DNA of 64,000 bases from Nitrospinota bacterium (GTDB taxonomy: Bacteria; JADFOP01; DATKYB01), in NCBI GenBank assembly GCA_035528715.1, contig DATKYB010000054.1, positions 131 through 64,130 of the forward strand, given 5' to 3'. How positions within the stretch are numbered: the stretch's first letter is position 1; the number at the start of each line of letters is the position of its first letter. A program made the translations under genes and the position numbers. Positions 38,888 through 43,149 of this stretch are shown here, piece after piece. The notes under the pieces are model-generated. The model was not told where the DNA came from. It saw only the letters and a program-made list of their open reading frames with translations, and searched no databases.

Positions 38888-39202
38888 TTAAATAACTTCC
38901 TTTACATTCTCATACCTATCAATTGAGTTATTGAGATCAATTATTTTGATTTCTTTTAAATAGTTTATTAATTTAGGATTTGAAATGTTTTTTAATTTTT
39001 GTAATACCTTTCGTATCCTTACAGATTCCTTCTGGATGAGATCAAGTCTTTGAACAGTCTTTTTATCTAGCTTTTCCTCATTGAATATATGGGTTAAATT
39101 CAACAGTATGACTGAAATAGGCTTCTCCAATCTTTGATTTATCATGTTTGTCATCTCATTTAAAATGATTGGGAATTCATTTTTAAACTTTTCTCTTATC
39201 AT
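38888..39202 (-). CDS. Hypothetical 104-aa protein inserted between mraZ and rsmH; degenerate DHp-like paralogue of the ORF at 19862..20146
   Basis: Aligns with the stand-alone DHp ORF (INQRLEKPIS vs INNPLNTIS; both end ...KIIDL) but has N/M where the phospho-accepting His sits. No other recognisable domain. Confidence 0.5.
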   Translation of the reverse strand: MIREKFKNEFPIILNEMTNMINQRLEKPISVILLNLTHIFNEEKLDKKTVQRLDLIQKESVRIRKVLQKLKNISNPKLINYLKEIKIIDLNNSIDRYENVKEVI

Positions 39203-39230: not shown

Positions 39231-39671
39231 TTAAAAACCTAACTCGGACAAACCCTCAGCTATATCTTCAAATTTCTCCTTAGATTCTTCAAAAAAAGAA
39301 TCCCACATATTTTTGCTCCAGATCTCCATCTTATTAAGTATGCCTATAATCACAGCTTCGGCATCTAAAGAGATCGATTCTCTTAGATAAGAAGGAATTA
39401 AAATTCTTCCTTGTTTGTCTGTGCTGCATTCTGCAGCACCTGAATAGAGAAGTCTCATAAATGTTCTCACATCTTTTTTCATTGTAGGTAGAGACTTTGT
39501 CTTTTCTTCAAGGATCAGCCATTCTTCTGTTGGGTATGCTACAATACAATTATCAAAATTTATTAATATTAAACGATTACTATATTTTGAGTTCAATATC
39601 TCTCTAAATTTTGCAGGAATATTAAGCCTTCCTTTTTTGTCTAAATTTACATAATATGTACCGATAAACAT
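39231..39671 (-). CDS. mraZ: Transcriptional regulator MraZ
   Basis: Two MraZ repeats, each with a DxxxR-type motif (NLDKKGRLNIP; STDKQGRILIP). First gene of the dcw cluster. Confidence 0.95.
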   Translation of the reverse strand: MFIGTYYVNLDKKGRLNIPAKFREILNSKYSNRLILINFDNCIVAYPTEEWLILEEKTKSLPTMKKDVRTFMRLLYSGAAECSTDKQGRILIPSYLRESISLDAEAVIIGILNKMEIWSKNMWDSFFEESKEKFEDIAEGLSELGF

Positions 39672-39678
39672 AGTTTTT

Positions 39679-39705
39679 TACCCACTTTAACCCACTTTTA
39701 CCCAC
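39679..39705 (-). promoter_or_regulatory. Candidate MraZ operator: three GTGGG direct repeats with 5-nt spacers (GTGGGTAAAAGTGGGTTAAAGTGGGTAAAA, minus strand), ending 8 nt before the mraZ ATG
   Basis: Matches the direct-repeat, 10-bp-periodicity architecture described for MraZ binding in E. coli. Lies downstream of a TTGACA-N17-TATATT promoter. Confidence 0.6.
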
Positions 39706-39715
39706 ATATAATGAA

Positions 39716-39744
39716 AATATATAGAATAGACGACTCTTTGTCAA
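39716..39744 (-). promoter_or_regulatory. Sigma70-type promoter TTGACA-N17-TATATT driving mraZ and the dcw cluster
   Basis: Exact -35 hexamer, 17-nt spacer and TATATT -10 on the minus strand, 45-70 nt upstream of the mraZ ATG. Confidence 0.5.
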
Positions 39745-39866
39745 GTAAATAAATCTTTATTTTTCTTTTTTTAAGGCTTAAAACTAAGAAATTGAAAGCT
39801 TTTAATGAGGATTAGAAAGGAATGAATAAGATAAGAATTAATTGGAAAAGAAATTAGAAAAATATA

Positions 39867-40295
39867 CCAAAGTAGATCATAAGCCGGGTTCTGTACCTAA
39901 AAAATTAGGTGATGATCATTTATCTGGGACACAGGTTACCCTTTGCCTCTAGCGACCTAACCCGAAAGCATCGGACGAGCAATCCTTATTTAGAAATAAG
40001 CAACTTCGTGAATAACCACAAAGTAAAATAGCTTATATCTAAAGTGCTTCCCTATTTGGTCTTGCTCCGGATGGGGTTTGTCAGCTCTCGATGTCACCAT
40101 CGAGACTGGTAAGCTCTTACCTTACCTTTTCACCTTTGCCCTTTTAAAGATTTTTTAAAAGGGTAGTCTCTTTTCTGTGACACTTTCCTTAGGGTTACCC
40201 CTACTGGACGTTATCCAGCATCCTGCTCTGCGGAGCCCGGACTTTCCTCTAGTTTCAAAAAATTTTGAAACCAGCGATCATCTGATCTACTTTGG
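39867..40295 (-). ncRNA. rnpB: RNase P RNA, bacterial type A
   Basis: Minus-strand transcript contains P4 5'-strand AGGAAAGTCCGGGCTCC and P4 3'-strand ACAGAACCCGGCTTA; GGTGAAAAGGTAAGGTAAGAGCTTACC (P10-P12 region); GGAGCAAGACCAAATAGGG. A 13-bp P1 helix (CCAAAGTAGATCA/TGATCTACTTTGG) defines the ends. Region is GC-rich relative to its surroundings. TATAAT about 10 nt upstream of the 5' end. Confidence 0.9.
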
Positions 40296-40364
40296 TATTT
40301 AAATTATAGTTATCTTATTAATTATATTTTTTGTTCTCCTCCATGGTTTGCTTTTAAATAAAAT

Positions 40365-41069
40365 TTAATCCTCCCAATATAATATCCTGCTACAGTGGGA
40401 ACAATGAATTATCTTGCTGTTATTTTTAATATCGTTAAATTTCTGCGGTGGCATGCTCACATGACAGCCTTGACATACATAATCCTTAACATTTATTACT
40501 GCTAATCCATGACGAATCTCTTTTATTTTAATGTACTCTCTAAGTACTTTTTTATCAATAAGTTCTTCAATTTCTTCTCTTTTCTTATTCTCTATACCTA
40601 ATAACTGTTGAAGCCTCTCAACTTCTTCTTCTTTTTCCTTTTTCTCGATTTGAAATCTCTTCTCTTCTAATTCCAACCTTTCTAAATTCTTTTTGTTCTC
40701 TTCAGTTTTCTCTTCAACTAATTCCATAACCATTAGAATCTCATCCTCTATGCTGCTAATCTTCTTCTCAATCTCCTGTATTTCCGATAGTATTGCTGAA
40801 TACTCCTTGTTTGTTTTAACCTCCATGAGTTTTATCTTGGTTTTATTAAGATTATCTCTCTTAATCTCTTCTTCTCTTTCTCCATTTCTTCTTTTTTTTT
40901 GTAAATCTTCTATCTCTTGATTAATCTCGCTGACCCTCTTCTCAAACTTCTGATATTCAGAGCGCAAACCCTCTATCTCTTCAGGTATTTTGGATTTAAC
41001 TTCCTTAAAATCAGAAACCTTTAAATCGACTTTTTGTAAATTTATTAATAATTCTAAATCTCTATTCAA
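40365..41069 (-). CDS. Zinc-ribbon domain protein (COG1579/DUF164-like): long coiled coil plus C-terminal CxxC...CxxC
   Basis: About 200 aa of heptad-rich, E/K-rich helix followed by CQGCHVSMPP...CSHCSRILY. Confidence 0.8.
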   Translation of the reverse strand: MNRDLELLINLQKVDLKVSDFKEVKSKIPEEIEGLRSEYQKFEKRVSEINQEIEDLQKKRRNGEREEEIKRDNLNKTKIKLMEVKTNKEYSAILSEIQEIEKKISSIEDEILMVMELVEEKTEENKKNLERLELEEKRFQIEKKEKEEEVERLQQLLGIENKKREEIEELIDKKVLREYIKIKEIRHGLAVINVKDYVCQGCHVSMPPQKFNDIKNNSKIIHCSHCSRILYWED

Positions 41070-41210: not shown

Positions 41211-41286
41211 TGGTGGGCCCACCTGGGCTCGAACCAGGGACCTACCGGTTATGAGCCGGTGGCTCTTCCAACTGAGCTATGGGCCC
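41211..41286 (-). tRNA. tRNA with anticodon CAU and CCA encoded; most likely tRNA-Ile2 (lysidine), alternatively elongator tRNA-Met
   Basis: Cloverleaf GGGCCCA-TA-GCTC-AGTTGGAA-GAGC-C-ACCGG-CTCATAA-CCGGT-AGGTC-CCTGG-TTCGAGC-CCAGG-TGGGCCC-A-CCA. G1:C72 excludes an initiator. C4:G69, C5:G68 and C29:G41 match TilS identity elements. It lies immediately downstream of rpoD, as ileX does in E. coli. Confidence 0.9.
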
Positions 41287-41338: not shown

Positions 41339-43099
41339 TTATTCTAACCCTTCTACGAAGCTTTTAAGTCTTTTACTCCTGCTTGGATGACGAAGCTTTC
41401 TTAGGGCCTTGGCCTCAATCTGCCTAATTCTTTCCCTTGTAACATCAAAATCTTGACCAACCTCTTCTAATGTATGATCCGTATCATTTCCTATCCCAAA
41501 ACGCTTTCTTAAAACCATTTCTTCTCTCGGTGTCAATGTCTGTAAAACTCTTACCATCTGCTCTTTTAAATTCAACTTAACCACAGCATCGGAAGGAGCA
41601 ACAAGTTTTTTATCTTCAATAAAATCTCCCAAATGACTGTCTTCTTCCTCGCCTATTGGCGTTTCTAAAGATATCGGCTCTTTAGCAATCTTTAGAATCT
41701 TTCTAACCTTTTCAATAGGCAATTCCATTCTTTCAGCAATCTCTTCAGGTATAGGCTCTCTTCCTATTTCCTGAACTAGATGTCTCGAAGTTTTTATCAA
41801 TTTATTTATTGTCTCAATCATATGAACAGGTATACGTATCGTCCTCGCTTGATCAGCAATAGCCCGAGTAATAGCCTGTCGAATCCACCAAGTTGCATAG
41901 GTACTGAATTTATATCCTCTCTGGTATTCAAATTTGTCCACCGCTTTCATCAAACCTATATTTCCTTCTTGAATAAGATCAAGAAATTGAAGACCTCTAT
42001 TCGTATATTTTTTTGCTATACTTACCACTAATCTCAGATTAGCTCGTGCCAGTTCTTTTTTTGCCTCTTTACCTTTTGACCTTCCTCTTTGAATTTTGTT
42101 TAGAGTTTCCTGAAGATTCTCATAAGACATATCTGTCTCTAACTCTATCCTTTTAATCTTCCTTTTAACGTTCCTTATACCCTTCTCAAACTCCAATAAT
42201 TTATCAAGAGAAAACTTTGACTGTTTTTTTAATGCCTCATTTTTTCTAGAGTTATTTCTCAACAATCTTATGTTGCTTCTAAGCTCATCAATATTCATTC
42301 CCATCTTTTCCAAAGGAATATCTATCTCTCTTTGGAAAATACCTATCTTATTGACTAAGACTTTGATTTTTTGAGCTAGTCTATCGATCTGATCTGAATT
42401 GAGATTAATTTCTTTTATTAACTCTACTATTTTAGATCTAGTTTTCTCCATCTCTTGGTTAAATCTATTAATATTTCTAGCTTTCTTTTTCTTCAGTTTT
42501 TCCTTAATCTTATATAATTTTTTATCATATCCCTTTATCCTGTTAATTAATTTTAAGACCCGCTTATATTCATTTTCATCATCCTCATTAATTTCTTCTT
42601 CAAAAACACCACTATCAGTGACTTGAGTTATTCCTATTTTCCGCTGTTTTAATCTCTCCTCTAGAAAAATAACTTCACTAACCGCTATAGGTGTATTAAT
42701 AACTGCATTTATTTCCTCATTTCTTCCCTCTTCAATCTTCTTTGCTATTTCAATCTCCCCTTCTCTGGTCAAAAGAGGTACTGTACCAATTTCTCTTAAA
42801 TACATTCTTACGGGATCATCAGTCTTACCCGCAATACTATCTGTTAAATCGATTGCTTTTTCTTTTTCTAACTTTTCTCTCACATAGGTCTTTATCACTG
42901 ATACTTTCTGGCTCTTTTGATCTGAATCAACTATTTCTATATCCATTTCTCCAAAAAGAATCATCATATCATCAATCTGATCAGGGGAAACAATGTTAGA
43001 AGAGAGACCATCATTAACTTCATCATAAGTAAGGAAACCTTTTTCTTTTCCTAAAGAAATGAGTTTTTTTATCGCTTTCTTTTCTAATTTTTTTGCCAT
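41339..43099 (-). CDS. rpoD: RNA polymerase sigma factor RpoD (sigma-70). The start is probably the ATG at 43099 ([12 protein letters not shown]...).
   Basis: Region 2 ([37 protein letters not shown]) and region 4 ([30 protein letters not shown]), with an acidic 1.1 region and a non-conserved spacer. Confidence 0.95.
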
Positions 43100-43149
43100 A
43101 ATTTGTTTTTCCTCCCCATGTCTTGGCAAATTTTTTTAAATAACAAAAT

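Follow-up and report, generated by a model that had tools for sequence, protein, structure and literature searches.

We conclude that, in an uncultured bacterium that bears the label Nitrospinota, the division/cell-wall (dcw) operon is very probably governed by an autoregulatory operator for the cell-division regulator MraZ; this operator would consist of three phased GTGGG boxes placed between the promoter and the mraZ start codon. The boxes were read from the minus strand of the 64-kb stretch of DNA analysed here (hereafter the window), where they span positions 39705-39681 at an exact spacing of 10 bp, the pentamers alternating with TAAAA and TTAAA. Box 1 (39701-39705; GTGGGTAAAA) would fall at approximately +5 to +9 of the predicted transcript, box 2 (39691-39695; GTGGGTTAAA) is preceded by AAA and thereby fits an AAAGTGG consensus, and box 3 (39681-39685; again GTGGGTAAAA) lies 9 nt before the ATG at 39671. 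The original prediction of three GTGGG pentamers with an exact 10-bp period is borne out by this read-out and by our pattern searches, while the gap of 8 nt that it gave between the array and the start codon is in fact one of 9 nt (TAAAAAACT).

The triple repeat is singular within the window. The pattern GTGGG-N5-GTGGG-N5-GTGGG was matched once in 64 kb and in none of 100 dinucleotide-preserving shuffles, and a relaxed search for three GTGG-N6 units with one mismatch allowed returned the array site only. A double-box search of the window recovered the array itself and one mismatched match, at chance level, in a tRNA gene (41213-41227); no further MraZ targets were found by it in the 64 kb. Short tandem repeats often occur in AT-rich intergenic regions, and an array might in principle have arisen by chance or slippage and carry no function, or be the site of a different regulator, but we consider either very improbable here. 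Chance and slippage are excluded because the shuffles lack the pattern and relatives conserve the array: the GTGG cores stay invariant while the intervening bases vary, in relatives down to 58% MraZ identity. The same motif is also found upstream of mraZ in distant phyla, and a different regulator is further disfavoured by the cognate mraZ lying immediately downstream with its DNA-contact residues intact.

The promoter that would be controlled by MraZ is close to the sigma-70 consensus. Its -35 hexamer TTGACA (39739-39744, minus strand), identified from the sequence and by a promoter scan, is separated by 17 nt from a -10 hexamer TATATT (39716-39721, minus strand; a 5/6 match), and we take the pair to be the mraZ/dcw promoter, equivalent to Pmra. 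TTGACA-N17-TATATT scored 11/12, a figure that describes a consensus match only, and was the best promoter-like site of the region in the scan, so that the array does lie downstream of a near-consensus promoter, as had been proposed. Box 1 begins 10 nt after TATATT (TTCATTATAT, minus strand). Transcription is predicted to start about 7 nt past the -10, near 39709 ± 2, which would give a leader of about 38 nt with the boxes at approximately +5 to +29. Abutting the -35 on its upstream side is an A-tract/T-tract block (TTAAAAAAAGAAAAATAAAGATTTATTTAC; 39774-39745, minus strand), retained as A8-G-A8..T-rich by those relatives whose MraZ is at least 73% identical, which is probably a UP-element-like enhancer of the mraZ promoter, judging from its sequence.

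Two other ways of controlling or initiating mraZ expression from this region were considered and rejected. A second promoter, or a leaderless start near the ATG, was dismissed on inspection and by the promoter scan, neither of which gave an acceptable -10/-35 pair ending about 7 nt before the ATG. A structured leader or riboswitch-like element was likewise set aside: for the leader together with the initial 38 coding nucleotides the folding energy is -9.1 kcal/mol, which is not significant (z = -1.0). The leader is A/U-rich, and the box 3 segment is unpaired in the predicted MFE fold. An Rfam search of the window returned rnpB and one tRNA and nothing else.

The rnpB gene (class A RNase P RNA; RF00010, 322 bits; 39865-40293, minus strand) is the upstream neighbour of mraZ and lies outside the regulatory element. 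The distance from its 3' end to box 1 was measured as 159 nt, in agreement with the approximately 160 nt given beforehand. It carries a 16-bp extended P1 helix (-24.2 kcal/mol) followed by TATTTTTC at about 39864-39857 (together 39857-39880 and 40283-40298, minus strand), an end that looks like a built-in intrinsic terminator; mraZ would therefore be expected to rely on a promoter of its own. The adjacency of rnpB and mraZ is kept in four of the related loci (L001, L003, L004 and L099), and their proximity is conserved synteny, with no functional link or evidence of coupling. Further upstream, on the same strand, the window encodes a CT398-like coiled-coil/zinc-ribbon protein (40365-41069), a tRNA (41214-41286) and a 596-aa ORF (41339-43129), which corresponds by position to a gene recognised by Pfam as sigma-70 in L004. 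That locus has the same upstream gene order with an extra RNase H gene.

Downstream of the array, mraZ (39231-39671, minus strand) is the dcw cluster's first gene and encodes a 146-aa product that is recognised by the Pfam MraZ family (E = 6e-36) and is 100% identical to a protein of a metagenome-assembled genome (MAG) labelled 'Nitrospinota bacterium'. The start codon appears to be right, because the MF.G N-terminus of the product lines up with the N-terminus of the family in the alignment. Both DxxxR motifs are kept (D11-K13-G14-R15 and D85-Q87-G88-R89) and are invariant in our protein alignment (A1), as are the individual residues K13, R15 and R89, the last being the equivalent of Arg86. 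The genes that follow are a 104-aa ORF, rsmH, ftsL and a class B penicillin-binding protein (PBP) gene, which together make up the dcw cluster's 5' end.

The 104-aa ORF (38888-39202, minus strand), an insertion between mraZ and rsmH, is probably a genuine gene, because it is kept at 56-70% identity in L001, L003 and L097; it is absent from L004 and L099, and among 5.8 billion proteins only two other clusters turned up for it. Its sole Pfam match, to the HisKA dimerisation/phospho-acceptor domain, is sub-threshold (E = 8e-4; 19.9 bits, the cutoff being 26.9), and by eye there is no histidine at the expected phospho-acceptor position. A 56%-identical relative (L101) has a STAS-domain gene (1124-1519) between mraZ and rsmH, and it seems that small genes of regulatory appearance have repeatedly been inserted at this junction in the group. 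The 82%-identical relative L003 has an extra 86-aa ORF without a Pfam match (2179-2439) between rsmH and ftsL, which has no counterpart in the window.

The mechanism that we propose follows from these elements and from work on MraZ in other bacteria. A strong sigma-70-type promoter, comprising the A/T-rich block, TTGACA, the 17-nt spacer and TATATT, would fire some 38 nt before the mraZ ATG, and the three GTGGG boxes, one per helical turn, would then occupy approximately +5 to +29. In Mycoplasma genitalium, cryo-EM has shown that each MraZ subunit uses Lys13, Arg15 and Arg86 to contact a GTG(G/T) box through the major groove; the subunits bind cooperatively, transcription starts within box 1, and most bacteria possess three boxes (PMC12957436). 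By analogy, adjacent subunits of the MraZ oligomer in the present organism would insert their DxxxR 'cradle' (K13, R15, R89) into the major groove, one box each and cooperatively, and MraZ bound along one face of the helix would prevent RNA polymerase from assembling an initiation complex or escaping from it, at the step of open-complex formation or promoter escape. The expected result is negative feedback on mraZ, the small ORF, rsmH, ftsL, the PBP gene and the operon's remaining genes. The sequence elements, their conservation, the consensus across the family and the conserved DNA-contact residues are observed; we infer the start site, the binding of MraZ, the repression and the SD function of box 3 discussed below, the repression step being drawn from homology.

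This scheme differs in two respects from the one first put forward, in which MraZ was thought to occlude both transcription elongation and ribosome loading. The boxes lie at approximately +5 to +29 of the predicted start, within the footprint of the initiating RNA polymerase, as they do in E. coli, Burkholderia cenocepacia and M. genitalium, so that a block of initiation or promoter escape is a more economical explanation than a block of elongation. Occlusion of ribosome loading is not supported either, because the contacts of MraZ are with the major groove of double-stranded DNA (PMC12957436) and ribosomes load on mRNA; nothing in our analysis suggests that the protein binds RNA.

The architecture agrees with that of the MraZ operators described so far. 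The Pmra operator of E. coli reportedly consists of three GTGGG/TGGGN direct repeats bound by MraZ (Eraso et al. 2014). When we checked the E. coli MG1655 sequence, we read TTGACA-N17-TAAACT, 7 nt, the array GTGGGAAATTGTGGGGCAAAGTGGG, and 19 nt containing AAGGGGTGAGG before the ATG. The GTGGG-N5-GTGGG-N5-GTGGG pattern of the window is thus identical to that of E. coli, and it is likewise located just past a promoter with TTGACA, N17 and a -10, upstream of mraZ-rsmH-ftsL-ftsI, with a similar predicted leader of about 38 nt. The two differ in that E. coli has 19 nt between the last box and the ATG, with a separate Shine-Dalgarno (SD) sequence (AAGGGGUGA; -10.4 kcal/mol), whereas the window has 9 nt and no separate SD; the -10 of the window, moreover, is TATATT (5/6) accompanied by an A/T-rich upstream block, as against TAAACT in E. 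coli.

The correspondence extends to other well-studied systems, as the original prediction had in part anticipated by naming E. coli and Bacillus. In B. subtilis, as work with an MBR deletion showed, repression by MraZ needs three GTGG[A/T]G repeats (MraZ binding repeats, MBRs), a triple found nowhere else in the genome (10.1101/2022.02.09.479790). The window resembles B. subtilis and other Bacillota in having three GTGG repeats with a 10-bp period in the mra promoter region, in a triple that occurs once in the 64 kb, but the Bacillota boxes read GTGG[A/T]G, and in 76 loci, mostly of Bacillota, among the matches listed the last box is 18-85 nt (median 29) from the start and is followed by a strong SD, compared with 9 nt in the window. 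In Mollicutes the motif is AAAGTG[T/G] (PMC8475190), an AAAGTGG-type 10-bp unit shared with the window; one MraZ subunit occupies each box in successive major grooves, and the start site is at or inside box 1, the start site of the window being a predicted one. M. genitalium differs from the window in having four boxes of the GTG(T/G) type, at which binding and repression have been verified by cryo-EM, EMSA and reporter work (PMC12957436), whereas the window has three GTGGG boxes at which both are predicted. In B. cenocepacia the repeats lie past the -10 and overlap a start site mapped by 5'-RACE, and MraZ shifts the fragment in EMSA (PMC7761207). PmraBc and the window are alike in having repeats past the -10, which in the window would lie at or near the predicted start site, but PmraBc has four 7-nt repeats and a 100-nt leader, in contrast to the window's three boxes and predicted leader of some 38 nt. 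Our search for literature naming both MraZ and Nitrospina found none.

A survey across bacteria placed these comparisons on a wider footing. It covered 80 mraZ loci among the matches listed, mostly from Bacillota with some from Desulfobacterota, under a strict GTGG criterion, and 76 of these 80 loci from other species carried three GTGG boxes at a period of 10. The positional consensus of these 76 arrays is AAAGTGG, which the window array fits, and among the matches listed the last box of the 76 loci is 18-85 nt (median 29) from the start, with a separate SD present. In four Paenibacillus loci (L018, L054, L082 and L086) the SD (GGGGG) follows the last GTGG box at a distance of exactly one 10-bp period, in the manner of a pseudo-fourth box, and this placement hints that operator phase and SD position may be linked in other lineages too.

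Comparison with related mraZ leaders had been set beforehand as a test of the array, and the GTGGG periodicity was found to be kept at the same position. Scanning metagenome contigs with the window MraZ alone yielded 2 loci. As close relatives we used contigs encoding MraZ proteins 99% to 58% identical to that of the window, the leaders of which were read out and aligned (A3); they comprise 10 loci including two duplicate contigs, of which 8 are distinct (L007, L001, L097/L003, L004/L099/L100, L089 and L090 among them). All 8 keep the promoter hexamers, the three boxes and a gap of 8-10 nt, while the spacers vary. No variation occurs in A3 at GTGG in boxes 1 and 2 (for box 2, at the longer A.AGTGG), at TGG in box 3 or at TAT.TT in the -10, and the -35 is TTGACA in 7 of the 8 aligned sequences, with TTTACA in L090. 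The 17-nt promoter spacer and the bases between the boxes are variable. So too is the sequence between the last pentamer and the start codon, although its length stays at 8-10 nt in all the compact relatives (TAAAAAACT, TAAAAAGTT, ATAATGTTT, GAAAATAATC, TAAAAAGCT, ATAAAGTT and GCAAGATC). More distant relatives (L096 and L101, both 56%; L093, 54%; L102, 53%; L091, 51%) retain the boxes in longer leaders, and those of L093 and L102 have a separate SD.

Some of these leaders carry additional GTGG-like elements in the promoter itself. In L004, L099 and L100 (73-74% identity) an extra GTGGGG directly follows the -35 (TTGACAAGTGGGG; approximately 2424-2430 in L004), 31 bp upstream of box 1 and thus roughly in helical phase; it is absent from the window, and may represent a fourth MraZ box inside the promoter spacer. 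In L090, L091 and L096 a GGTGG abuts TATATT, which creates an extended -10 (TGnTATATT) together with a GTGG about 21 bp upstream of box 1.

The pattern of conservation also bears on whether the G-tracts could form a G-quadruplex (G4), in DNA or RNA, that controls mraZ expression. A functional G4 motif is reported to lie between the mraZ promoter and mraZ in Staphylococcus aureus (PMC11796246), and the array of the window does have three GGG tracts with 7-nt loops. Yet these are the only three G3 tracts at 39800-39640, where no four-tract pattern emerges even with G2, and a canonical intramolecular G4 is excluded because only three G-tracts are present. What the relatives conserve, moreover, is GTGG (including the T and the first G) and the 10-bp phase, not the length of the G-run, just as a protein-recognition site predicts. 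We consider control by a G4 to be highly unlikely, and the array to be best read as a set of MraZ boxes.

The one unusual aspect of this operator, as far as its sequence tells, is the compaction of the leader, in which box 3 is 9 nt from the AUG and no separate ribosome-binding site is present. The original prediction held that there is no SD, and it was right insofar as the stretch from the array to the ATG lacks a purine-rich SD; but box 3 is itself SD-like, at -6.2 kcal/mol compared with a gene median of -5.6. The segment concerned, AAAGUGGGU in the mRNA (39680-39688, minus strand), consists of box 3 and its flanks, and its duplex with the anti-SD CACCUCCUUU pairs via AAAG-U-GGGU at -6.2 kcal/mol, with the paired segment ending 7 nt from the AUG. 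From the last G of box 3 to the AUG the distance is 9 nt, a workable spacing that slightly exceeds the 5-7 nt at the clear SD sites of the window. For the scoring, the last 20 nt before 39 ATG-initiated long ORFs were paired with CACCUCCUUU; the starts were taken at the first ATG, so that some may be wrong, and the anti-SD sequence was assumed, the 3' end of the host 16S rRNA lying outside the window. The 39 ATG genes had a median of -5.6 kcal/mol, compared with -2.2 for random 20-mers from the window, of which 10.6% reach -6.2. Many genes of the window have clear GGAG or GGAGG sites, and the organism therefore uses SD pairing.

The last box is likewise where the anti-SD pairs best in all relatives of the compact clade (-4.0 to -6.4 kcal/mol). 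The last box contains GGAG or AGGAGG in L089 and L008, and the third box of L003 (ATGGGA) is weaker, at -4.0. Box 3 thus very plausibly doubles as a moderate SD, and once transcribed, AAAGUGGGU would most likely act as such an element in the mRNA; this would explain the fixed distance of 8-10 nt between box 3 and the AUG in the clade. Against this reading, G-rich boxes in an AT-rich (35% GC) genome look SD-like regardless, and the pairing could be a by-product. No literature linking MraZ boxes to SD function was found.

A stronger version of this idea would have the three SD-like GUGGGU repeats work chiefly in the RNA, as a tandem 'standby' platform for ribosome binding or a translational enhancer, with the likeness to MraZ boxes being secondary. 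Each AAAGUGGGU unit is indeed complementary to the anti-SD, and the leader is A/U-rich and unstructured with no other SD in it. However, boxes 1 and 2 are at 29 and 19 nt from the AUG, beyond SD range, and an exact 10-bp phasing is a feature of the DNA helix that is meaningless for 30S binding. Furthermore, the same array occurs in 76 of 80 other genomes (among the matches listed) at 18-85 nt from the start and with a separate SD, and because those genomes pair a distant array with an SD of its own, the primary ancestral role of the array is not ribosome binding. We therefore judge a mainly RNA-level function improbable, and retain MraZ binding as the principal role of the array.

Between these positions lies the possibility that operator and ribosome-binding site have been fused in this clade. 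The segment AAAGTGGGT (39688-39680) would then be read twice, as box 3 by MraZ on the DNA and as an SD by the 30S subunit on the RNA; two constraints would act on its sequence and on the 8-10 nt spacing, and additional standby contacts with the 30S subunit might come from boxes 1 and 2. We put this forward tentatively, with a confidence that falls somewhat short of even. If true, it would represent a compact, dually coded operator and ribosome-binding site of a kind not described for MraZ systems.

In summary, our results add an uncultured lineage with the label Nitrospinota to the range of the experimentally defined MraZ operator, here with GTGGG-N5 spacing as in E. coli, and support the view that autoregulation by MraZ via three phased boxes is close to universal. 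The new detail in an otherwise standard MraZ operator is a clade-specific compaction, in which the last box is the sole SD-like element of the leader. If its dual use were confirmed, it would illustrate neatly how signals at the DNA and RNA levels can overlap.
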